64,000 nt of DNA from Candidatus Latescibacterota bacterium. Lineage in GTDB: Bacteria; Latescibacterota; CBDEFO01. Made by a program: the position numbers and the translations under genes. The stretch lies in NCBI GenBank assembly GCA_965248755.1, contig OZ252149.1, forward strand, positions 2,496,001 to 2,560,000, in the 5' to 3' direction. A model generated the notes under the pieces. The model saw only the letters and a program-made list of their open reading frames with translations, did no database searches and was not told the DNA's origin. Positions within the stretch are counted from its first letter, which is position 1, and each line of letters opens with the position of its first letter. Shown piece after piece: positions 9,527-42,743 of the stretch.

Positions 9527-10873
9527 GGGTGTGTAAGGAAATTTGTGTAAATGGGGAAATGAGTTATATTAGTTGTCCACCATTTACATAAGGAGTTCTT
9601 ACATGGACAAGCTAGACCCGAAGTTGATTGATGAGCTTTTGAAGGATTACAAGAAGCCGGAAGACATAATTGGTGAGGAAGGTCTTTTGAAGCAGTTGAC
9701 GAAGGCGATTCTTGAGCGGGCTCTGGAGTCAGAGCTTACGTATGAGTTAGGCTACGATAAGAGTTCTCCAGAAGGGAGGAACAGCGGTAATTCGCGCAAC
9801 GGTAGGAGCACAAAGGGATTGAAGACAGATTATGGTGATCTGGAGATATCGGTGCCACGGGATCGGAACAGTCAGTTTGATCCGCAGATAGTGAGGAAGG
9901 GGCAGAGGCGATTTACAGGCTTTGATGATAAGATACTGTCTATGTATGCCCGAGGGATGACCACACGTGATATACAGGCTCATTTGGAGGAGATATACGG
10001 TGTAGAGGTGTCCCCTGATTTGATATCGACTGTGACCGATGGGATCATATCAGAGGTGAAGCAGTGGCAGGATCGTCCTTTGGAAGGGGTGTATCCCATA
10101 GTATTCTTTGATTCTCTGGTGATGAAGATTAGAGACGAAGGCCGGATCGTAAACAAGGCGGTGTATCTTGCGGTAGGGGTCGGTCTGGATGGGATGAAAG
10201 ACGTTTTGGGTATCTGGATTGCAAAGAGCGAGGGGGCGAAGTTCTGGCTGCAAGTTTTCACGGAGCTTAAGAATCGGGGGATGAACGATGTGTTGATAGC
10301 TTGCGTGGATGGTCTCCAGGGTCTTCCAGAGGCTATTGAATCCGTATTTCCCCAAGCAGAGGTCCAGCTCTGTATTGTCCATGTGGTGAGGAATTCCTTG
10401 AAGTTCGTGTCGTATAAGGACCATAAGAAGATTGCCGCCGACCTCAAGAATATATACCGAGCCCCCACGGTAGAACAGGCTGAAGAGGCCCTTGGAGATT
10501 TTCAGGAGGCTTGGGACAGCCGTTATCCGATGATAAGTAAATCGTGGCAGAATAACTGGTCTCGGATCATCCCGTTTTTCGCCTACTCTGAAGAGATCCG
10601 AAGGGTGATCTATACCACAAACGCCATCGAATCGCTTAATAACTCTCTACGGAAAGTAATAAAGAACAGAAATAGCTTCCCAAACGACGAGACAGCGATT
10701 AAGTTACTCTATATGACACTCAAGAATATCAAGAAAAAATGGACGATGCCGATCAGGAACTGGAGCTTGGCCATTCACCAATTCTCCATCCACTTCGAGG
10801 GGAGATTTGGTATAGAATAAGCCGAAAAGGGTACAGAAGAAAATCCCATTTACACAAAAAAACTGACAGACCC
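9527..10873 (+). mobile_element. IS256-family insertion sequence, copy 1 (1347 bp)
   Basis: Imperfect TIRs GGGTGTGTAAGGAAATTTGTGTAAATGGG / CCCATTTACACAAAAAAACTGACAGACCC around a transposase; near-identical to copy 2. Confidence 0.92.
9573..10820 (+). CDS. IS256 (Mutator) family transposase; likely start ATG 9603
   Basis: RNG..VPRDR, YPIVFFD, CVDGL, QLCIVH, YTTNAIESLN. Confidence 0.95.
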   Translation: MSTIYIRSSYMDKLDPKLIDELLKDYKKPEDIIGEEGLLKQLTKAILERALESELTYELGYDKSSPEGRNSGNSRNGRSTKGLKTDYGDLEISVPRDRNSQFDPQIVRKGQRRFTGFDDKILSMYARGMTTRDIQAHLEEIYGVEVSPDLISTVTDGIISEVKQWQDRPLEGVYPIVFFDSLVMKIRDEGRIVNKAVYLAVGVGLDGMKDVLGIWIAKSEGAKFWLQVFTELKNRGMNDVLIACVDGLQGLPEAIESVFPQAEVQLCIVHVVRNSLKFVSYKDHKKIAADLKNIYRAPTVEQAEEALGDFQEAWDSRYPMISKSWQNNWSRIIPFFAYSEEIRRVIYTTNAIESLNNSLRKVIKNRNSFPNDETAIKLLYMTLKNIKKKWTMPIRNWSLAIHQFSIHFEGRFGIE

Positions 10874-19736: not shown

Positions 19737-20314
19737 CGCTACTAACTGGCACACGCGCAAGCCTCTTGTTATTATCCAAAATCCCTGCCATCTGGCAACG
19801 GTGTTGTCCTCAGGTTCGATTTTCTTGTAATCTGAGTAGCACCCAATATTCCCACGGGCCAGTCTTTCGTATCCTTACAGACTTACCAAGAACCTCTCTG
19901 ATTGTACCTTTAGGCCTCCCTGTGCTTAACACTTGTCTAACCTCATCGGTAATCAGAACAGTCGGAGTTGTACGCCGAGTCGCGCCGGAGTTCTGGCCTT
20001 ATTCTCTACGTTTCTTTCTTCCGGCATCTCATCAGACCGCCCCGTCCTAACTTTTCTACGTCCATCTTTTACACTGAATCGATAAGATAACCGAATCTTG
20101 CACAGGCATTGCCTCTTGGAACCGAAGTGACGGCACAAACATTGTAGGATAGGCTGACTCTACGCCATGTAGTCGTAGCTGATATATCACGACGGGTCTG
20201 GAGATATAGTATCTTTCATAATACTTCGTATATGCTGAGAACTTAAACATGTTGCCGTTTAGAGTGGCTTTCCCTCGAGTAGTAGAGGAACACGGAACAT
20301 AAGACTCTGCACTA

Positions 20315-20415
20315 TAGAAGTCAGTCTATGAGAACTCCAATAGAAGTCAGTCTATGAGAACTCCATAGAAGTCAGTCTATGAGAACTCCATAGAAGTCAG
20401 TCTATGAGAACTCCA
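20315..20415. repeat. Four head-to-tail copies of 25-bp TAGAAGTCAGTCTATGAGAACTCCA
   Basis: Copies start at 20315 (one extra A), 20341, 20366 and 20391; no spacers. Confidence 0.95.
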
Positions 20416-20604
20416 TCATATTGTGTTCGTTAAGAACATCAAATAGATCTTGATCGAAAACGTTCGAGTGGGAGGAAGTGTATTCGCAGGCAGGATTTCT
20501 TTGCAGAAGTGCTTGAGTGCTGTCGGACAAAAGCCCTTTCGGCCTCGTTTCTGGATTCAAAATCAGCACAAAAGGTGACAACAAGAATGCGGCGGAAATT
20601 AACG

Positions 20605-30553: not shown

Positions 30554-33500
30554 ATGCACAGGGATATTTGTAGGATAGCTCTAACGGCGGTCATCGCCGT
30601 TGTCCTCTACGTCACACCTGCAGGGGCGGCAAAGTGGAGGACATACACTACAGAAGATGGTCTGGCGAGCAACCATGTCTATGCGAGCTTGGAGGACAGA
30701 GAGGGCAACCTGTGGTTTGGAACTGAAGGGGGTGTGAGCCGCTATGATGGGATGTGGACAACCTACACCACAGCAGATGGGCTGGCGTACAACTCGGTCC
30801 GTTCGATCTTAGAGGATAGTGAGGGTAACTTGTGGTTTGGCACTGATAATGGAACTGTGAGCCGCTATGATGGCGTGAAATGGACGACCTTCACCTCAGA
30901 AGATGGTCTACCATTCAACCCGGTAAGTCCAGCTGGTCTACCATTCGACCCGATAATTAGGAGCTTGGAGGACAGAGAGGGCAACCTGTGGTTTGGATTA
31001 GGATTCGGTGGGGGCTTGAGCCGTTATGATGGGGAAAGGTGGACAACCTACACCAAAGCAGATGGCCTGGGAGGCAACAACGTGTTGGCGCTCTTGGAAG
31101 ATAGTGAGGGCAACTTGTGGTTTGGAACTAGACGGGGCGGCGTGAGCCGCTATGATGGGGAAAGATGGAGGACCTTCACCACAGTTGATGGCCTGGTACA
31201 CAACCGGGTCCTTTCGATCTTAGAGGATAGAAAGGGTAACTTGTGGTTTGGAACTAGTAGAGGTGTGAGCCGCTATGACGGGGAAAGATGGACGACCTAC
31301 ACCACAGAAGATGGCCTGGCGGAGAACTGGGTCAATACGATCTCTGAGGATAGTGAGGGCAACCTGTGGTTTGGAACTATATTTGGAGGCGTGAGCCGCT
31401 ATGACGGGGAAAGATGGACGACCTACACCACAGAAGATGGCCTGGCGGACAACTGGGTCAATACGATCTATGAGGATAGTGAGGGCAATCTGTGGTTTGG
31501 CACTCAGAATGGAGGCGTGAGCCGCTATGATGAGACATGGACAACCTACACCACAGTTGATGGCCTAGCGGACAACTCGGTCAGAGCAATCTTAGAGGAT
31601 AGCGAGGGCAATTTGTGGTTTGGGACTTTTGGGGGCGGTGTGAGCCGCTATGATGGGGAGAGATGGACGACCTACACTACATCAGATGGCTTGGCGGGCA
31701 ACCGGGTCTATACAATCTTTGAGGATAGTGCGGGCAATCTGTGGTTTGGAATTGGTGGAGGCGTGAGCCGCTATGATGGGGAAAGATGGATGACCTACAC
31801 CAGAAAAGATGGCTTGGCGGGCAACACGGTCTATTCGATCTTGGAGGATAGTGCGGGCAATCTGTGGTTTGGTACTTTTGCGTTCGGCGTGATCAGCTAT
31901 GATGGGGAGAGATGGACAACCTTCTCCACACGTGATGGCCTAGCAGACAACAATGTCTATACAATCTTGGAGGATAGAGAGGGCAATTTGTGGTTTGGTA
32001 CTTTTGGAGGTGTGAGTCGCTATGATGGGGAGAGATGGACAACCTTCTCCACACCTGATGTCCTAGCAGACAACAGAGTCCATGCGATCTTGGAGGATAG
32101 TGCGGGCAATCTGTGGTTTGGGACTTTTGGGGGCGGTGTGAGCCGCTATGATGGGGAGAAGTGGACGACCTTCTCCACACCTGATGGCCTGGCGGGCAAC
32201 CGGGTCATGGTGATCTTTGAGGACAGGGAAGGCAATCTGTGGTTTGGAACTATATTTGGAGGCGTGAGCCGCTATGATGGGGAAAGGTGGACGACCTTCA
32301 CTACAAAAGATGGTCTGGCACACAACCAGGTCGAGGCGATCATAGAGGATAGTGTAGGCAACCTGTGGTTTGGTACTGAAAGTGGAGGGGTAACCAGATA
32401 CAAAGGTGACAGGACACCGCCCAACACATTTATCTTAGATGGTCCAGATGGAATGATCGGCGCCCCACAAGCTTTCTTCGAATATAGTGGCGGGGATAGG
32501 TTTTCACCAGACGCGGATTTGCAATTTGCGTATGCCATCAAGAGCAATCGGGACAGGCCCAGTGAAGACGATTGGTCGATCTTTTCAGATATTAGCTCTA
32601 CCCTCACAGATCGCTTCCCCAATGGGACCTACACTTTCTACGTACGGGGAAGGGACGAAGTGGGAAACATAGATCCCACTCCAGCCGGGAGAACGTTCAC
32701 TGTGGATTTAACCCCGCCGATAGTGGCGATCAGTTCCCCATCGAGCAACGAAATTATTCATGGTAATGTAAACATCCGGGGCTCGGCCTTCGACAACTCC
32801 GATATCCCCGACTTTGCGAGCTATACGTTGGAATACGGGAAAGGAGCAGATGAGGATAAGATATCAGAATGGCGCAGTATAAGGGATAGCGCCGTGAAGC
32901 CTGTCGTAAATGACCTTTTAGGTGTGTGGGACACCGAAGGGATATTCGGCACCTATGTCCTCAGGCTTGGAGCTGTGGACGGCTTCGATCACAGGAGCAA
33001 GTATGCCATCACCGTCCACGTGGTTGCGGCAGCTGTTGAGGTAGATCGCAGTAGTGGAGGACATATCACCGATTCAGCGAGCAAGGTGGATCTCTACATC
33101 CCCCCCAACGGTATTCCCAAGAGCACGCAGGTGACGATCACTCCCGTTGCGCTTGAAGGTGTCGCAAAGCCCTCTGCTCTGAATTTGCGCCTTATTGGGT
33201 TGGCCTACGACATCGGTCCGAAGGATCTTGCAGTCCTGAAACCTGCAACCTTTACGATATTCCTCAATGAAGACGACATACAGGAGGTGCCAGATCTTGG
33301 GAAGTTGGCAATCTTCACCCGGTCATCTGCGGACAGTCCCTGGGAGAGAGTCGGCGGCACGGTCGATGAGAGGACGGGGAAGATGACAGTAGCCCTCATA
33401 CACTTTGGGAGATTTGCATTGATGGAGGACCTTTCTGTGGATGAGGGGAGTCTGTCCATTTCGGATGTGAACTGTCAGCCGAGGGTCTTCTCCCCAAAGG

Positions 33501-33757
33501 GCGGCGGCTACGACACCAAGACCACGATATCCTTTAATCTTGGAAGAAGGTCAGCGGTTACAGTGAAGGTCTACGATGTCTCAGGACGGTTCAAAAGAAA
33601 GTTGGTCGAGGACAGCGAAATGAATCGAGGGAGTAATGCGGTGGAATGGGAGGGGAGGGATCATGACGGGGAGGTAGTAGTAAGTGGACTCTACGTGGTG
33701 GCTGTGGAAGCTGATGGGAAGCTGGAGACTAAGACAGTTGGGGTGTTGAATAAGTGA
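30554..33757 (+). CDS. Secreted Reg_prop beta-propeller (14 blades) + Ig-like + ZU5-like + FlgD-type C-terminal domain
   Basis: Signal peptide; 14 repeats of WTT.T..DGL..N.V..I.ED.EGNLWFGT.GGVSRYDG; C-terminal PRVFSP..VKVYD..WEGRD..SGLY. Confidence 0.85.
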   Translation: MHRDICRIALTAVIAVVLYVTPAGAAKWRTYTTEDGLASNHVYASLEDREGNLWFGTEGGVSRYDGMWTTYTTADGLAYNSVRSILEDSEGNLWFGTDNGTVSRYDGVKWTTFTSEDGLPFNPVSPAGLPFDPIIRSLEDREGNLWFGLGFGGGLSRYDGERWTTYTKADGLGGNNVLALLEDSEGNLWFGTRRGGVSRYDGERWRTFTTVDGLVHNRVLSILEDRKGNLWFGTSRGVSRYDGERWTTYTTEDGLAENWVNTISEDSEGNLWFGTIFGGVSRYDGERWTTYTTEDGLADNWVNTIYEDSEGNLWFGTQNGGVSRYDETWTTYTTVDGLADNSVRAILEDSEGNLWFGTFGGGVSRYDGERWTTYTTSDGLAGNRVYTIFEDSAGNLWFGIGGGVSRYDGERWMTYTRKDGLAGNTVYSILEDSAGNLWFGTFAFGVISYDGERWTTFSTRDGLADNNVYTILEDREGNLWFGTFGGVSRYDGERWTTFSTPDVLADNRVHAILEDSAGNLWFGTFGGGVSRYDGEKWTTFSTPDGLAGNRVMVIFEDREGNLWFGTIFGGVSRYDGERWTTFTTKDGLAHNQVEAIIEDSVGNLWFGTESGGVTRYKGDRTPPNTFILDGPDGMIGAPQAFFEYSGGDRFSPDADLQFAYAIKSNRDRPSEDDWSIFSDISSTLTDRFPNGTYTFYVRGRDEVGNIDPTPAGRTFTVDLTPPIVAISSPSSNEIIHGNVNIRGSAFDNSDIPDFASYTLEYGKGADEDKISEWRSIRDSAVKPVVNDLLGVWDTEGIFGTYVLRLGAVDGFDHRSKYAITVHVVAAAVEVDRSSGGHITDSASKVDLYIPPNGIPKSTQVTITPVALEGVAKPSALNLRLIGLAYDIGPKDLAVLKPATFTIFLNEDDIQEVPDLGKLAIFTRSSADSPWERVGGTVDERTGKMTVALIHFGRFALMEDLSVDEGSLSISDVNCQPRVFSPKGGGYDTKTTISFNLGRRSAVTVKVYDVSGRFKRKLVEDSEMNRGSNAVEWEGRDHDGEVVVSGLYVVAVEADGKLETKTVGVLNK

Positions 33758-36700
33758 TTTCGGTACTGTGCATACTCAAGGAACGAGGTCACAGGCAGTT
33801 GCTTTGTCGTATAGCTCTAACGGCGGTCATCACCGTTGTCCTCTACGCCACACCTGCAAGGGCGGGAAAGTGGACGACCTACACCACAGCTGATGGCCTG
33901 CTAAGCAACTCGGTCGACGCGATCTTTGAGGATGGTGACGGCAACCTGTGGTTTGTAGGTGACTTGTTTGCAGGTGAAGAAAGAGGTGTGAGCCGCTATG
34001 ATGGGACTTGGACAACCTTCACCACAGCTGATGGCCTGGCGGACAACTTGCTCGGTTCGATCTTGGAGGACAGTGAGGGCAACCTGTGGTTTGGAAGCTT
34101 AAAGGGTGTGAGCCGCTATGATGAGACTTGGACAACCTTCACCACAGCTGATGGACTGGCTAACAACTCGGTCGGTTCGATCTTGGAGGACAGAGAGGGC
34201 AATCTATGGTTTCGGACTGAACGGGGTGTGAGCCGCTATGATGGGGAAAGGTGGACGACCTTCACCACAGCAGATGGCCTGGCGAGCAACTCGGTCAGGG
34301 CAATGTTGGAAGACAGTGAAGGCAACCTGTGGTTTGGAACTAGAGAAGGCGTGAGCCGCTATGATGGGGAGAGATGGACAACCTTCACCGCAACAGGTGG
34401 CCTGGCGCACAAGTCGGTCAGGGCGATGTTGGAAGACAGGGAGGGCAACCTGTGGTTTGGAACTAATGAGGGCGTGAGCCGCTATGATGAAACATGGACG
34501 ACCTACACTACATCAGATGGCCTGGCGGACAATTTGCTCGGTTCGATCTTGGAGGACAGTGAGGGCAACCTGTGGTTTCGAAGCTTAGAGGAGGGTGTGA
34601 GCCGCTATGATGGGGAAAGGTGGACGACCTTCACCACAGCAGATGGCCTGGCGAGCAACTCGGTCAGGGCAATGTTGGAAGACAGTGAAGGCAACCTGTG
34701 GTTTGGAACTAGAGAAGGCGTGAGCCGCTATGATGGGGAGAGATGGACAACCTTCACCGCAACAGATGTCCTGGCGCACAAGTCGGTCTGGAGAATGTTG
34801 GAAGACAGGGAGGGCAACTTGTGGTTTGGAACTAATGAGGGCGTGAGCCGCTATGATGAAACATGGACGACCTACACTACATCAGATGGCCTGGCAGACA
34901 AATCGGTCAATTCGATCTTGGGGGATAGAGAGGGCAATTTGTGGTTTGGTACTTTTGGAGGTGTGAGTAGCTATGATGGGGAGAGATGGACGACCTACAC
35001 CAGAAAAGATGGCCTGGCGGGTAACGTGGTTTTGACGATCTTGGAGGATAGTGCGGGTAACTTGTGGTTTGGAACTTTACAGGGTGTGGGTGTAAGCCGT
35101 TATGATGGGGAAAAGTGGACGACCTACAACACAGCTGATGGTCTGGCGAGTAACGCGGTCCTTTCGATCTTGGAGGATAGTGCGGGCAATCTGTGGTTTG
35201 GTACTTTTGCGTTCGGCGTAAGCCGTTATGATGGGAAAAAGTGGACGACCTACAACACAAAAGATGGCCTGGCGCATAACCAGGTCGGTTCGATCTTTGA
35301 GGATAGTGAGGGCAACCTGTGGTTTGGAACTAGAGGAGGCGTGAGCCGCTATGATGGGGAGAGATGGACAACCTTCTCCACAGCTGATGGCCTAGCACAC
35401 AACATTGTCTATACAATCTTTGAGGATAGAGAGGGCAACTTGTGGTTTGCAACTGGTGGTGGCGCGAGTCGCTATGATGGGGAAAGGTGGACGACTTACA
35501 CTACAGAAGATGGCCTGGCGAACAACATTGTCTTGACGATCTTGAAAGACAGTGAGGGCAACTTATGGTTTGGAACTGTGGGGGGTGTGAGTCGCTATGA
35601 TGGGGAAAGGTGGACGACCTACACTACAGAAGATGGCCTGGCGGACAACTATGTCAATGCGATTTTTGAGGACAGTGAGGGCAAGTTGTGGTTTGGAACT
35701 CTTGAAGGGGTAACCAGATACAGAGTTGACAGATCGCCGCCAAACACATTTATCTTCGATGGGCCAAAAGGAATAATCGGCATCCCACAGGCTTTCTTCC
35801 AATACAGTGGGGGGGATAGGTATTTGCCAGGGGCGGATGTGCAATATGCGTATGCCATCAAGAGCGATCGGAACAGACCTATAGAAGAGGATTGGTCAAG
35901 CTTTACACATCTCACCTCTACCCTTACAGATCCTCTTTCCAACGGCACCTACACATTCTACGTACGGGCAAGTGACAAAGCGGGAAACTTCGATATTAGC
36001 CCCGCTAAAAAGACTTTCACCGTGGATTTAACAGCCCCGACGGTGCTGATTACTTCTCCATCGAACGACGAGATCATTCATGGAGAGATGAGCATCAAGG
36101 GCTCGGCCTTCGACAACTCTGATAAACCCGACTTTGGTAGCTATACGTTGGAATACGGGAAGGGGACAGATGAGGACAAGATATCAGAATGGCGCAGTAT
36201 AAGGGATAGCGCCGTGAAGCCTGTAATAAACGACCTTTTAGGTGTGTGGGACACCGAAGTGCTATTCGGCACCTATGTTCTCCGGCTGAGAGCTGTGGAC
36301 GGCTTCGATCACAGGAGCAAGTATGCCATCACCGTCCACGTGGTTGCGGCAGCCGTTGAGGTAGATCACAGTAGTGGAGGACATATCACCGATTCTGCGA
36401 GCAAGGTGGATCTCTACATTCCCCCCAACGGTATTCCCAAGAGCACGCAGGTGACGATCACTCCCGTTGCGCTTGAAGGTGTCGCGAAGCCCTCTGCTCT
36501 GAATTTGCGCCTTATTGGGATGGCATACGACATCGGTCCGAAGGATCTTGCGGTCCTGAAACCTGCAACCTTTACGATATTCCTCAATGAAAACGACATA
36601 CAGGACGTGCCAGATCTTGGGAAGTTGGCAATCTTTACCCGGTCACCAGCGGACAGTCCTTGGGAGAGAGTCGGCGGCACGGTGGATGAGAGGACGGGGA

Positions 36701-37077
36701 AGATCACAGTCGCCCTCACACACTTTGGGAGATTTGCAGTGATGGAGGACCTTTCTGCGGATGAGGGGAGTCTGTCCATTTCGGATGTAAACTGTCAGCC
36801 GAGGGTCTTTTCTCCAAAGGGCGGCGGCTACGACACCAAGACCACGATATCCTTTAATCTTGGAAGAAGGTCAGCGGTTACAGTGAAGGTTTACGATGTC
36901 TCAGGACGGTTCAAAAGAAAGTTGGTCGAGGACAGCGAAATGAATCGAGGGAGCAATGCGGTGGAATGGGAGGGGAGGGATCATGACGGGGAGGTAGTAG
37001 TAAGTGGACTCTACGTGGTGGCTGTGGAAGCTGATGGGAAGGCGGAAACCAAGACAGTGGGGGTATTGAATAAGTGA
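33754..37077 (+). CDS. Paralog 2 of the secreted beta-propeller protein (15 blades)
   Basis: Same architecture; C-terminal third nearly identical to paralog 1. Confidence 0.85.
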   Translation: MISVLCILKERGHRQLLCRIALTAVITVVLYATPARAGKWTTYTTADGLLSNSVDAIFEDGDGNLWFVGDLFAGEERGVSRYDGTWTTFTTADGLADNLLGSILEDSEGNLWFGSLKGVSRYDETWTTFTTADGLANNSVGSILEDREGNLWFRTERGVSRYDGERWTTFTTADGLASNSVRAMLEDSEGNLWFGTREGVSRYDGERWTTFTATGGLAHKSVRAMLEDREGNLWFGTNEGVSRYDETWTTYTTSDGLADNLLGSILEDSEGNLWFRSLEEGVSRYDGERWTTFTTADGLASNSVRAMLEDSEGNLWFGTREGVSRYDGERWTTFTATDVLAHKSVWRMLEDREGNLWFGTNEGVSRYDETWTTYTTSDGLADKSVNSILGDREGNLWFGTFGGVSSYDGERWTTYTRKDGLAGNVVLTILEDSAGNLWFGTLQGVGVSRYDGEKWTTYNTADGLASNAVLSILEDSAGNLWFGTFAFGVSRYDGKKWTTYNTKDGLAHNQVGSIFEDSEGNLWFGTRGGVSRYDGERWTTFSTADGLAHNIVYTIFEDREGNLWFATGGGASRYDGERWTTYTTEDGLANNIVLTILKDSEGNLWFGTVGGVSRYDGERWTTYTTEDGLADNYVNAIFEDSEGKLWFGTLEGVTRYRVDRSPPNTFIFDGPKGIIGIPQAFFQYSGGDRYLPGADVQYAYAIKSDRNRPIEEDWSSFTHLTSTLTDPLSNGTYTFYVRASDKAGNFDISPAKKTFTVDLTAPTVLITSPSNDEIIHGEMSIKGSAFDNSDKPDFGSYTLEYGKGTDEDKISEWRSIRDSAVKPVINDLLGVWDTEVLFGTYVLRLRAVDGFDHRSKYAITVHVVAAAVEVDHSSGGHITDSASKVDLYIPPNGIPKSTQVTITPVALEGVAKPSALNLRLIGMAYDIGPKDLAVLKPATFTIFLNENDIQDVPDLGKLAIFTRSPADSPWERVGGTVDERTGKITVALTHFGRFAVMEDLSADEGSLSISDVNCQPRVFSPKGGGYDTKTTISFNLGRRSAVTVKVYDVSGRFKRKLVEDSEMNRGSNAVEWEGRDHDGEVVVSGLYVVAVEADGKAETKTVGVLNK

Positions 37078-40000
37078 TTTCGGAATTGTGCATACTTAAG
37101 GAACGAGGTCACAGGCAGTTGCTTTCTCGAATATCTCTAACTGCGGTCATAGCTATTCTCCTCTACGCCACACCGGCAAGGGCGCAAAGGTGGACGACCT
37201 ACACCACAGCAGATGGTCTGGCGGGAAATTCAGTCAGGACGATCTTGGAGGATAGTGATAGCAACCTTTGGTTTGGGACTTCAAAGGGAGGCGTGAGTCG
37301 GTATGACGGGACGTGGACTACCTTCACCACAGCAGATGGGCTGACGAATAACTCGGTCAATGCAATCTTGGAGGATAGCGACAGCAACCTTTGGTTTGGA
37401 ACCGATATGGGGGTGAGCCGATATGATGGGTCGTGGACAACTTTCACCACGGAAGATGGTCTGGCGGGAAATTCAGTCAGGGCGATCTTGGAGGATACTG
37501 AGGGAAACCTGTGGTTTGGAACTGGTACGGGCGCGAGCCGCTATGATGGAGAAAGGTGGACAACTTACACTACATCAGATGGACTGACAAATGACCTGGT
37601 CCATTCGATCTTGGAGGATACTAAGGGCAGCCTATGGTTTGCAACTAATGGAGGTGTAAGCCGCTTTGATGGGACGTGGACGACCTTTACGGTGACAGAT
37701 GGTCTGGCGGACAATGCGGTCTATTCGATCTTGGAGGATACTAAGGGCAACCTGTGGTTCGGAACTAACGGAGGTGCAAGCCGCTTTGATGGGACGTGGA
37801 CGACCTTTACGGTGACCGATGGTCTGGCGGACAATGCGGTCACCGCAATCTTGGAAGATAGCGAGGGCAATTTGTGGTTTGGAACTGAGGGTGGTGCAAG
37901 CCACTATGATGGGTACAGGTGGAAGACCTACCGCACATCAGATGGCCTGGCAAACAACTTGGTCTTAACGATCTTGGGGGACAGCGAGGGCAAGTTGTGG
38001 TTTGGAACTGGTGGGGGAGGCGTGAGCCGTTACAATGGGACGTGGACAACCTACACCACAGCAGATGGCTTGGTGGACAATGGCGTCAGTGCGATTTTGG
38101 AGGATAGTGGGGGTAACTTGTGGTTTGGAACCGGTACCGGCGTGAGCCGTTATGACGGAGCAAGATGGACGACCTACACCGCCGAAGATGGCCTGGCGGA
38201 CGATGAAGTCAATGCGATCTTGGAGGATAGTGACGGCAACCTGTGGTTTGGAACCGGAGGAGGGGTAAGTCGCTTTGATGGGACATGGACGACCTATACC
38301 GTGACCGATGGGCTGGCTAACGACATGGTCTTTACCATTTTGGGGGGCAGTGAGGGCAATCTGTGGTTTGGCACTGAGGGGGGCGTAAGTCGCTATGATG
38401 GGACATGGACGACCTATACTGCGACAGATGGTCTGGCGGACAACGTGGTCAATGCGATCTGGGAGGACAGTGAGAGCAACCTGTGGTTCGGAACTGTGTC
38501 TGGCGTGAGCCGCTATGACGGAGAGCGATGGACAACCTTCACCACAGCAGATGGCCTGGCGGACAATGCAGTCAATGCAATTTTGGAGGACAGTGCAGGC
38601 AACCTGTGGTTTGGAACCGGAGGAGGTGTAAGCCGCTTTGATGGGACATGGACGACCTATACCGTGACCGATGGGCTGGCACATAATGCGGTCAATGGCA
38701 TCTTGGAGGATAGTAAAGGCAACCTGTGGTTTTTGAATGGACTTGCCGACAGAGGTGCAACACGATATGGAGGGGACAGGATACCTCCAAACACTTTGAT
38801 CGTAGATGGACCAGAAGGAATAATCGGCACCCCACAGGCTTTCTTCCAATATAGCGGTGGGGACAGGTTTTCCCCAGAGACAGATGTACAATATGCTTAT
38901 GCCATCAAGAGTAATCGGGACAGGCCTACTGAAGGCGATTGGTCAGACCTTTCACATTTTACCTCCCACCTTACAGATCCCTTCCCAAGCGGAACCTACA
39001 CATTCTATGTAAGGTCGGCGGACAAAGCGGGAAACATCGATCCTACTCCAGCCAAAAGTACCTTCACTGTGGATTTGACCCCACCGATGGTGATGATAAA
39101 TTCTCCATCCAATGACGAGATCATTCATGGGCAGGTAAACATCTTGGGCTCGGCTTTCGACAACTCCGATATTCCCGATTTTGAAAGCTATGCGTTGGAA
39201 TACGGGAGTGGGTCGGATGAAAACAAGATCCTAGAATGGCGGACTATTAGGGAAGCTATGGAGCCTGTAAGGAGCCTTTTGGGCGTGTGGGACACCGAAG
39301 GGATATTCGGCACCTATGTCCTCAGGCTCAGAGCTGTGGACGGCTTCGATCATCGGAGCAAGGACGTTATTACCGTCCACGTCGTTGCGGCAGCCGAGGT
39401 CGTGGATCCCCGTCGTGGGGGGCATATTACTGATGCGGTAAGCAAGGTGAACCTCTACATCCCCCCCAACGGTATTTCCAAAAGCACCCAGGTGACGATT
39501 ACTCCCGTTGCGATTGAGAGTATGACGAATCTGTCTGCTCCGAACGTACAGCTTATTGGGATGGCCTATGACATCGGTCCGCAGGGTCTTGAACTCTTGA
39601 AGCCCTCAACCTTTACGATGTCCCTTTCCCCGATAGAATCAATCGGGGAGCAGGATAACATAGGGGAGTTGCCAGATCTCGGGAAATTGGCAATCTTTAC
39701 CCGGTCATCTGAGGACAGTCCATGGGAGAGGGTCGGCGGCACAGTCCTCCCCGATAGAATCAATCGGGGAGCAATCGGGGATCAGGGGGCGAGGAAGATC
39801 ACAGTCGCCCTCACACACTTTGGGAGATTTGCATTGATGGAGGATCTTTCTGATAAACAGGGGAGTCTTTCCATTTCGGATGTGAACTGCCAGCCGAGGG
39901 TCTTTTCTCCAAAGGGAGGCGGATACGACACCAAGACCACGGTATCCTTTCATCTTGGAAGAAGGTCTGCGGTTACAGTGAAGGTCTACGATGTTTCTGG

Positions 40001-40172
40001 ACGATTCAAGAGAAAGCTGGTCGAGGACAGGGAAATGAATCGAGGTAGCAATGCTGTCGAGTGGGACGGGAAGGATCATGAGGCAGATGTAGTGGTAAGT
40101 GGACTCTATGTGGTGGCTGTGGAGGCTGATGGGAAGGTGGAGACTAAGACAGTGGGGGTGTTGAATAAGTGA
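37074..40172 (+). CDS. Paralog 3 of the secreted beta-propeller protein (13 blades), with two in-frame palindrome insertions
   Basis: Same architecture; extra peptides SPIESIG and LPDRINRGAIG are absent from paralogs 1 and 2. Confidence 0.85.
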   Translation: MISELCILKERGHRQLLSRISLTAVIAILLYATPARAQRWTTYTTADGLAGNSVRTILEDSDSNLWFGTSKGGVSRYDGTWTTFTTADGLTNNSVNAILEDSDSNLWFGTDMGVSRYDGSWTTFTTEDGLAGNSVRAILEDTEGNLWFGTGTGASRYDGERWTTYTTSDGLTNDLVHSILEDTKGSLWFATNGGVSRFDGTWTTFTVTDGLADNAVYSILEDTKGNLWFGTNGGASRFDGTWTTFTVTDGLADNAVTAILEDSEGNLWFGTEGGASHYDGYRWKTYRTSDGLANNLVLTILGDSEGKLWFGTGGGGVSRYNGTWTTYTTADGLVDNGVSAILEDSGGNLWFGTGTGVSRYDGARWTTYTAEDGLADDEVNAILEDSDGNLWFGTGGGVSRFDGTWTTYTVTDGLANDMVFTILGGSEGNLWFGTEGGVSRYDGTWTTYTATDGLADNVVNAIWEDSESNLWFGTVSGVSRYDGERWTTFTTADGLADNAVNAILEDSAGNLWFGTGGGVSRFDGTWTTYTVTDGLAHNAVNGILEDSKGNLWFLNGLADRGATRYGGDRIPPNTLIVDGPEGIIGTPQAFFQYSGGDRFSPETDVQYAYAIKSNRDRPTEGDWSDLSHFTSHLTDPFPSGTYTFYVRSADKAGNIDPTPAKSTFTVDLTPPMVMINSPSNDEIIHGQVNILGSAFDNSDIPDFESYALEYGSGSDENKILEWRTIREAMEPVRSLLGVWDTEGIFGTYVLRLRAVDGFDHRSKDVITVHVVAAAEVVDPRRGGHITDAVSKVNLYIPPNGISKSTQVTITPVAIESMTNLSAPNVQLIGMAYDIGPQGLELLKPSTFTMSLSPIESIGEQDNIGELPDLGKLAIFTRSSEDSPWERVGGTVLPDRINRGAIGDQGARKITVALTHFGRFALMEDLSDKQGSLSISDVNCQPRVFSPKGGGYDTKTTVSFHLGRRSAVTVKVYDVSGRFKRKLVEDREMNRGSNAVEWDGKDHEADVVVSGLYVVAVEADGKVETKTVGVLNK

Positions 40173-40914: not shown

Positions 40915-41070
40915 GTAGGGGCGAACCCATGTGTTCGCCCAATAGAGACAAGGTATCCTGCAAAATAAATGTAAGGCCAAGGTTACCCTGCCCTTGGGGC
41001 AAGGAGACCTCGCCCCTACAAATAGGGGTCACCCCACGGATCAGGGCAGACACGCGGGTCTGCCCCTACA
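40915..41070. repeat. Cluster of three GTAG-type REP palindromes
   Basis: GTAGGGGCGAACCCATGTGTTCGCCC (40915), GGGCAAGGAGACCTCGCCCCTAC (40997), GGGCAGACACGCGGGTCTGCCCCTAC (41044). Confidence 0.85.
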
Positions 41071-41897: not shown

Positions 41898-42743
41898 TTA
41901 CATTTGCCTTTCATACGGGTGGAAGAGCGTCTGTCCACCTACTCTAAAATCCTCTATTATCTTCTGCCCCTGTGGCGAGGTCATCCAGCCTATCAGCGCC
42001 ATAGAATAGACGTAGTTTACGTGGGGGTGAATACTCGGATTGATCGCTATTACTCCGTAAGGGTTGAACAACGCAGAGTCGCCTTGAAACAACACCACAA
42101 TATCAACTTTTCGCGAATACGCAAGGAGTGTTCCTCTATCAATCAGGACGTAGGCCCCCTTCTCATCTGCTATCTGAAGCGTAGCCGCCATGCCCTGACC
42201 CGTCTCTATGTACCATTTTTCCGTCCCCGACCCCGGATTGAATCTATTGGGGGTCAATCGGGGATCTACCCCAGCCTTTTCCCATATCTCCATCTCCTTT
42301 TTATGAGTCCCGGAGTCGTCTCCTCTGGAGGCAAAAAGGGAGTTCTTTGCAAATATCCTCTTCATCGCCGAGAGAACATCAGAGGTTTGAGCTATCCCGG
42401 CAGGGTCATCTCTTGGACCTGCTATCACAAAGTCGTTGTACATTACATCTCGTCTGTTGACCCCGAAGGCCTTTTCTACGAAGTCCTCCTCGGCTTTCCT
42501 TGCATGCACGAGCACGACATCAACATCTCCGTTCTCCCCCAACTTTAGCGCTTTCCCCGTCCCCACAGCTATTACATCCACCTTAACACCAAATAGTTTC
42601 TCAAAAGGAGGGAGTAGCTCTAAAAGGAGACCTGAATTTTCGGTACTCGTGGTCGTTGCAAGCTTTATTCTCTCTTGGGCATCCGCCGGAGACCACAAAA
42701 GGGCACAGATTAAAAGGAGGCTAATGGCTGCTATAACCCTCAT
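41898..42743 (-). CDS. tupA: Tungstate-binding protein TupA-like
   Basis: LATTTSTENSGLL, VGTGKAL, SRGDDSGTHKKE, GQGM, NPY. Confidence 0.92.
   Translation of the reverse strand: MRVIAAISLLLICALLWSPADAQERIKLATTTSTENSGLLLELLPPFEKLFGVKVDVIAVGTGKALKLGENGDVDVVLVHARKAEEDFVEKAFGVNRRDVMYNDFVIAGPRDDPAGIAQTSDVLSAMKRIFAKNSLFASRGDDSGTHKKEMEIWEKAGVDPRLTPNRFNPGSGTEKWYIETGQGMAATLQIADEKGAYVLIDRGTLLAYSRKVDIVVLFQGDSALFNPYGVIAINPSIHPHVNYVYSMALIGWMTSPQGQKIIEDFRVGGQTLFHPYERQM

Follow-up and report, generated by a model that had tools for sequence, protein, structure and literature searches.

A frame-blind 21-nt hairpin repeat in a Latescibacterota bacterium, with two in-frame insertions in one of three tandem paralogous genes

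Introduction

Translated palindromes have been known since those of Rickettsia, and both their mode of insertion and the question of whether mechanism or selection keeps the host reading frame open have mostly been argued rather than measured. Coding palindromes, longer elements, were reportedly also found in Methanocaldococcus jannaschii and Wolbachia by Suyama and by Ogata in 2005, and the small dispersed repeats (SDRs) of Nostoc are said, from the work of Elhai et al. in 2008, to be about 20–27 nt long and mobile-looking. SDRs are cited in passages of PMC4390886 and PMC2884548, and a passage of the former has SDR5 inserting precisely inside a CG-containing HIP1 site. In Rickettsia the RPEs are described, in parts of PMC1779305 and PMC10969869, as palindromes dispersed between genes and also in frame inside unrelated protein genes; PMC2229807 reviews in-frame palindromes and cites the M. 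jannaschii and Wolbachia work. The GTAG and CGTC classes of REPs are, in the accessible text of PMC3733652, 20–40-bp hairpins that are mostly intergenic and in some cases lie in ORFs, sometimes twice per ORF, and for these intragenic copies its authors there invoke loss of inactivated genes together with the tolerance of loops. In-frame palindrome insertion is already known from other bacteria, and the element described here works like RPEs and intragenic REPs. What it adds is a measurable contrast between frame-blind insertion and mostly in-frame survivors in genes: two sister genomes differ at about 90 length-polymorphic sites and the transposase of an insertion sequence (IS) serves as a neutral control, so that the family is active enough for the frame question to be counted. 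The locus from which we start offers a clean case of loop growth, suited to teaching, and shows no new function.

Results

Two in-frame inserts in paralog 3

The window, a 64,000-nt stretch of the genome of Candidatus Latescibacterota bacterium (this genome is referred to below as G000 and a same-genus sister genome as G001), carries three tandem paralogous genes on the plus strand. Paralogs 1 (30554..33757, 1067 aa) and 2 (33754..37077, 1107 aa) are without inserts, while paralog 3 (37074..40172, 1032 aa) encodes Reg_prop beta-propeller repeats, Ig-like domains, a ZU5-like domain (approximately 39378..39845 from the predicted model and Foldseek) and a C-terminal FlgD-Ig domain. DNA and protein alignments of the three genes leave exactly two gaps in this region, of 21 and 33 nt, both filled in paralog 3 only, and the 1032-aa ORF is open in G000 despite both inserts, bearing out the preliminary description in its claim of two extra in-frame segments confined to this gene. 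That description had also held both segments to be the same palindrome read in two different frames 121 bp apart; this stands for the identical 21-mers (CCCCGATAGAATCAATCGGGG), whose spacing and two frames are as claimed, but not for insert 2 as a whole, which amounts to about 1.5 elements.

Insert 1 (39627..39647, plus strand, net +21 nt) places SPIESIG after an L and ahead of the ancestral D, which is E in G000. It consists of a T followed by the first 20 bases of hairpin copy 1 (CCCCGATAGAATCAATCGGGG, 39628..39648, no strand assigned), which has an 8-bp stem, including the flanking T–A pair, and a 7-nt loop; the last hairpin G is that of the host GAT codon. Site 1 reads ctt gat in a fourth paralog elsewhere in G000 (locus L007), and in the G001 paralog 3 a D directly follows the insert, so insert 1 sits between L and D and the last G is host-derived. 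Paralog 2 reads NENDIQD here and is colinear with paralog 1. Insert 2 (39747..39779, plus strand, net +33 nt) adds LPDRINRGAIG in what the predicted model and the alignment place as a beta-hairpin turn, and is made up of CT, a full hairpin identical to copy 1 (copy 2, 39749..39769, no strand assigned) and the 3′ half of a second copy, 10 of whose 11 bases belong to the insert (39770..39780, no strand assigned; AGCAATCGGGG in G000 and ATCAATCGGGG in G001, where the 11 nt repeat the hairpin end exactly and in tandem). This half copy may be either a nested insertion or a slippage duplication. The corresponding empty sites lie at junctions 33265/33266 and 33364/33365 in paralog 1 (33265..33365, plus strand), where site 2 reads GTCGAT, and at 36585/36586 and 36684/36685 in paralog 2 (36585..36685, plus strand). 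By translation, peptides spanning the junctions would include TMSLSPIESIGEQ and GTVLPDRINR.

Both inserts are present in the G001 paralog 3 and in a contig from sequencing run X5, which belongs to a different study and matches 39299–39831 without gaps and with 15 substitutions; these two sources make an assembly artefact an unlikely origin of the inserts. In runs X5, X6 and X1 some contigs have joints at which 33 or 36 nt are missing; these most likely derive from the insert-free paralogs and were not scored as empty alleles, and a 121-nt skip in X6 is probably a repeat collapse. After each of the two hairpin copies (window positions 39650 and 39771) G000 has AG and G001 has AT, with T in X5 at both positions and in X6 at 39771; this parallel change at one relative position suggests either that two GATC sites were lost or that conversion took place between the 26-nt stretches over which the copies are identical.

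Polarity and predicted structure

Homologs were sought with residues 770–1032 of paralog 3, giving 68 proteins of which 52 could be aligned over the domain and 51 were complete. The segment at site 2 is 14 aa long in 45 of these 51 (range 13–16) and 25 aa in paralog 3, and that at site 1 is 14–42 aa (mode 22; 21–22 in the eight closest homologs) and 29 aa in paralog 3. The short state is kept by the three to four insert-free paralogs, by 12 of 14 rows of a tree and by the outside homologs; the two insert-bearing orthologs form a single branch of that tree (support 96/100), so that one gain suffices, the deeper branching order among the paralogs being weakly determined. Long loops as the ancestral state, the alternative against which the comparison with outside homologs had been proposed as a check, are ruled out by the segment lengths and the tree. 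The inserts are thus derived and predate the split of G000 and G001, and the short state in paralogs and outside homologs supports their acquisition after the duplication, as the preliminary description had proposed. A metagenome scan for a paralog 3 ortholog with empty sites gave one distant locus only and no pre-insertion allele.

An AlphaFold2 model of the ZU5-like domain built from the 51-row alignment has a pLDDT of 90.4. Insert 1 occupies model residues 84–90, after the strand at 72–83 and before the sole segment with pLDDT below 50 (90–93), and insert 2 occupies residues 124–134, where it lengthens the turn ahead of the strand at 139–147; the two blocks are low-confidence loops with mean pLDDT of 78 and 65 respectively. 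The best Foldseek matches, with a TM to target of about 0.65, are UNC5b (3g5b, E 1e-7) and chains of ankyrin ZU5, and as paralog 3 itself has no Pfam ZU5 match the domain is termed ZU5-like. The model and the fold match support the earlier proposal that new peptide was added to loops of this domain, both inserts being predicted to lie in such loops.

A small dispersed hairpin

The element, CCCCGATAGAnTCAATCGGGG, occurs in G000 (4.54 Mb, one contig) as 178 exact copies and as 486 copies with at most two mismatches, versus 1 and 0 matches at the same threshold in two shuffled-genome controls, and the window holds eight copies versus 0.01 expected, excluding chance. Hairpin folding z-scores are −2.5 to −3.7. 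G001 has 210 exact copies and none of 59 other genomes of the phylum has the 21-mer. Across the genome collection, among the matches listed (at least 80 loci), 65 are in one Latescibacterota MAG, which was left out of the later comparisons, and the remainder comprise 13 in six Deltaproteobacteria MAGs, one in Thermodesulfobacteriota and one in a Nanoarchaeia record, this last copy being on a 3.5-kb contig that may be mis-binned; five of these genomes hold 36, 8, 7, 6 and 1 copies. The viral contigs gave no exact match to the 21-mer, and Rfam gave no match at E ≤ 1 for 39400–40000. No published description of the family was found by a literature search that included the motif strings and had subscription journals and supplements outside its scope, and the family is apparently undescribed and unusually small.

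On either side of the 21-mer the adjoining bases can pair with each other in 385 of the 486 copies versus about 224 after permutation, the flank profile showing only R–Y on each side. Duplications of 2 bp in the flanks are at chance level (66 versus 69 expected), which rules out a constant target-site duplication, and there is a small excess of 4–6-bp duplications only. A full copy is followed by a 3′ half in 26 of the 486. General local templating from nearby copies is not supported, as identity is seen in 3 of 45 close pairs where 2.5 would be expected. With gene calls from our own simple gene caller, 75 of the 486 copies (about 15%) lie inside called genes of G000; confident gene interiors contain 44 versus 308 expected, at a density 33-fold below intergenic, a depletion that may in part mix selection with a target preference for non-coding hairpins. 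Four of the six reading frames of the element contain no stop and each of the four is in use, with coding copies encoding peptides of 7–11 aa. Among genes polymorphic for an insert are ones with ketoacyl synthase, Gfo/Idh/MocA, glycosyltransferase and Aldedh Pfam domains.

Related arrangements were seen elsewhere. A shorter, 17-nt relative (CCCCGATTTAATCGGGG), present in G000 as 14 exact copies, gives net +15 inserts, several of which are in frame inside older copies in genes. A third gene of the window, on the minus strand (41898–42743) and encoding a PBP-like ABC binding protein, has a nested in-frame hairpin insert (DPRLTPNRFNPGSG, 42225–42260), and a cluster of GTAG-tagged REP-like hairpins lies at 40916–41070; genome-wide the 21-mer is often found inside GTAG-tagged REP-like and CGTC-like repeats. 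An Aldedh-family enzyme, which we take to be ProA-like, has one hairpin peptide in G001 (L175:17327-18604) and a nested form with 11 further aa in G000 (G000:C1:2355993-2357303), and this pair is a case of stepwise loop growth within a genus.

Filled and empty sites

G000 was compared with 2.37 Mb of G001, which is about half of that genome, in windows some of which had been picked for the known copies that they hold; over the first 1.57 Mb the long blocks are 95% identical. Both flanks were found in the other genome for 170 of 316 G001 copies and 156 of 486 G000 copies, giving 211 sites. Local anchors were available for 91 that differ by more than 3 nt, and a further eight polymorphic sites lacked them. 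Among 70 non-coding length differences there are 13 of +19, four of +20, seven of +27 and two of +21. In one class (net +19/+20) a few bases give way to the hairpin, the neighbouring base often being overwritten so that the stem closes, and the replaced pair is CG in 8 of 15 distinct contexts, themselves partly non-independent, versus a background of 5.3%. The other class (net +27) has an RCAGG tail or a 5–6-nt duplicated flank, and nested insertions add about 10–18 nt. Empty paralogous sites within G000 itself gave 15 contexts, several of them sharing repeat families, with ten of +20, four of +27 and one of +21. The empty sequence of site 2, GTCGAT, fits the first class, and +21 and +33 both fall outside the modal event sizes. 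For insert 2 the simplest histories are +19 followed by a nested +14, or +22 followed by +11 through slippage, and either would have passed through an out-of-frame intermediate; a two-step route that stayed in frame, or a single complex event, is less simple.

Reading frame and selection

A 1.27-kb IS, which from its motifs we presume to be IS3-like, carries the same +20 insert in 23 of its 79 copies in G000. None of the 23 filled copies has a transposase ORF of more than 199 codons, versus ORFs of 308–316 codons in 53 of the 56 empty ones. Besides these transposases, four other ORFs retain non-3n inserts; the insertion process is frame-blind. The IS is present as 69 near-full copies (for example G000:C1, 4017052–4018319) and has 45 identical ones; its tree requires two to three gains or losses of the insert, and a subfamily of 15 has spread even though the insert breaks its transposase frame, from which it would have moved in trans.

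For the length differences between G000 and G001, Fisher tests were carried out with the eight polymorphic sites lacking a local anchor and three IS sites excluded. When curated by hand, 14 of 18 coding sites versus 28 of 70 non-coding sites are 3n (P = 0.007), and the four non-3n coding cases break or alter the ORF. As hand curation risks circularity, three blind rules that judge coding status from the shorter allele alone were also applied, and these gave 8/9 versus 34/79 (P = 0.012), 8/12 versus 34/76 (P = 0.22) and 7/10 versus 35/78 (P = 0.18). Of the 14 intact coding events, six are +27, a size that is in frame by construction. Selection for 3n changes in genes is therefore supported but not proven, the direction being consistent in a small sample. 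The statement in the preliminary description that only 3n net changes survived selection holds in its direction and fails in its ‘only’, given the persisting non-3n inserts and the range of P-values under the blind rules.

Discussion

Like the M. jannaschii and Wolbachia palindromes, which are reportedly translated inside proteins, the element is predicted from ORFs to contribute peptide to its hosts; it differs from them in that its 19-, 20- and 27-nt size classes come from direct comparison of filled and empty sites. It resembles the SDRs of Nostoc, compared here by description and not by sequence, in being 21–27 nt long, in being gained or lost between relatives and in its CG-centred targets, and on the same descriptive footing differs from them in phylum, in sequence and in its loose targets with bases replaced. 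From MITEs, which would have a constant target-site duplication and IS-like TIRs, it differs in that such a duplication is missing and its empty sites show base replacement. With RPEs, to the extent that the passages cited above describe them, it shares the nature of a dispersed multi-copy palindrome that lies in frame in unrelated conserved genes, has proliferated in a particular lineage and encodes no mobiliser; the placing of inserts in surface loops, seen with RPE-type coding palindromes, is matched here by two inserts in a predicted model. RPEs proper are 100–150 bp long and have a Rickettsiales host (in the part of PMC1779305 that deals with them), whereas the element is 21–27 bp, and unlike RPEs it gives peptides of 7–11 aa in four frames with no recognisable shared sequence and has only about 15% of its copies in called genes. 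It is like REPs, as they appear in the available description, in being a small and mostly intergenic hairpin with a double insertion in one ORF, and unlike the GTAG and CGTC classes in having no fixed tag (GTAG is found directly after the right end of 24 of the 486 copies) and in being rarely dimeric. Unlike REPs it also inserts into REP-like repeats and into itself.

The explanation that we favour, with a probability of roughly 0.7, is that the inserts in paralog 3 result from a frame-blind selfish hairpin followed by selection in genes. The element would be a non-coding DNA hairpin of 21–23 nt that is written into its targets with the replacement of a few bases and without regard to frame. 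In the common case the central CG of an RY-CG-RY-like context would be replaced and the closing pair made complementary (net +19/+20), in the second class an RCAGG tail or a short duplication would be added (net +27), and older copies would be targeted again. From the ragged ends and replaced bases we infer that a single-stranded hairpin intermediate may anneal through 2–3-nt end homologies and be fixed by host repair. Within genes, insertions that shift the frame or break the structure would be purged, leaving 3n survivors in tolerant loops. In paralog 3 there would have been one +21 event and one compound +33 event, both after the paralog split and before G000 and G001 diverged, the latter most simply in two steps and probably through an out-of-frame intermediate, the loops gained in this way being most likely neutral passengers.

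The source of mobility and the state of the host gene each allow other readings. Mobility could instead be REP-like, a peel-and-paste process by a trans-acting HUH (Y1/RAYT-type) or related transposase that has been lost or was transiently supplied, with CCTG as the tag at the foot of the hairpin and selection for frame acting as above. The RCAGG/CCTGY tail would fit this, being oriented (23 versus 4 by side) in the 27 of 486 copies that have it, as would several +27 events that add a tailed unit without loss or duplication, the identical 21-mer in distant phyla and the precedent of the GTAG/CGTC-tagged REPs, so far as the accessible part of PMC3733652 describes them. The tail is, however, absent from 94% of copies, base replacement and ragged ends would generally be atypical of precise HUH insertion, and the single-contig G000 (98% complete) has no match to PF01797 (Y1, so that the RAYT expected beside GTAG-class REPs is missing), PF01548 (IS110), PF01385 (TnpB) or PF13366 (GxxExxY); in addition, with about 95% identity between the genomes, they differ at about half of the orthologous sites, which indicates recent activity. 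We regard such a transposase as unlikely. G000 does contain a single four-helix-bundle gene, a 608-aa GIY-YIG protein and two reverse transcriptases. These last have no visible connection with the hairpin, to which the DNA upstream of the retron-like one bears no resemblance. That paralog 3 is a relaxed or dying duplicate whose in-frame state is a matter of luck would agree with its redundancy in a four-gene family, with the probable out-of-frame past of the +33 insert and with the arithmetic, as about 40% of non-coding events are 3n and two would be in frame by chance with a probability of about 0.16. It would also agree with two +2 indels in the propeller repeats of the G001 ortholog (L156:11674-14782), which break the frame upstream of the inserts; in comparisons of the two assemblies 71 of 671 and 40 of 590 genes show non-3n differences in length, so these frameshifts may be errors, and error and decay are indistinguishable here. 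Against decay, the ORF is intact in G000 and its pN/pS relative to G001 is 0.24, like that of other genes (median of 582 genes 0.225), with 0.30 over residues 565–1032 (P = 2e-4) and 0.43 in the ZU5-like part (P = 0.098); paralog 3 is thus under purifying selection and we consider its decay improbable.

At the opposite extreme the loops might be adaptive, providing a new binding surface under positive selection. The ZU5 fold mediates protein binding in ankyrin and UNC5, both inserts are in this one domain and both are retained in G000, G001 and run X5. Yet shared coding hairpin copies diverge by 3.7%, close to their flanks (5.0%) and to non-coding copies (3.1%), so that to judge by divergence they give no sign of special conservation or adaptive constraint; moreover site 1 is a length-variable loop anyway, identical peptides occur in unrelated proteins and the G001 ortholog may be frameshifted, all of which makes this reading very improbable. 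A bolder form of the selfish-hairpin explanation is one that we hold tentatively and on balance doubt: the 21-mer would be a minimal transposase-free ‘oligo parasite’ that crosses phyla letter for letter, is installed when the host repairs a single-stranded hairpin annealed at CG-centred micro-homologies and retargets itself, a second insertion rescuing the frameshift of the first, as the +33 insert suggests. If this were true, the loops of conserved proteins would lengthen stepwise within a genus.

Other mobile or repeated sequences were noted along the way. The retron-like reverse transcriptase gene (L212, G000:C1:3730098-3733640) is interrupted by a hairpin-carrying IS copy and is followed downstream by a gene which is presumably effector-like, and the second reverse transcriptase, at L213, is Abi-like. 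In the window, two 99%-identical copies of a repeat family with terminal inverted repeats (D12), which is probably an IS, lie at 9527 and 13594, and four near-identical tandem repeats of 25–27 nt are found between genes at 20314–20416.
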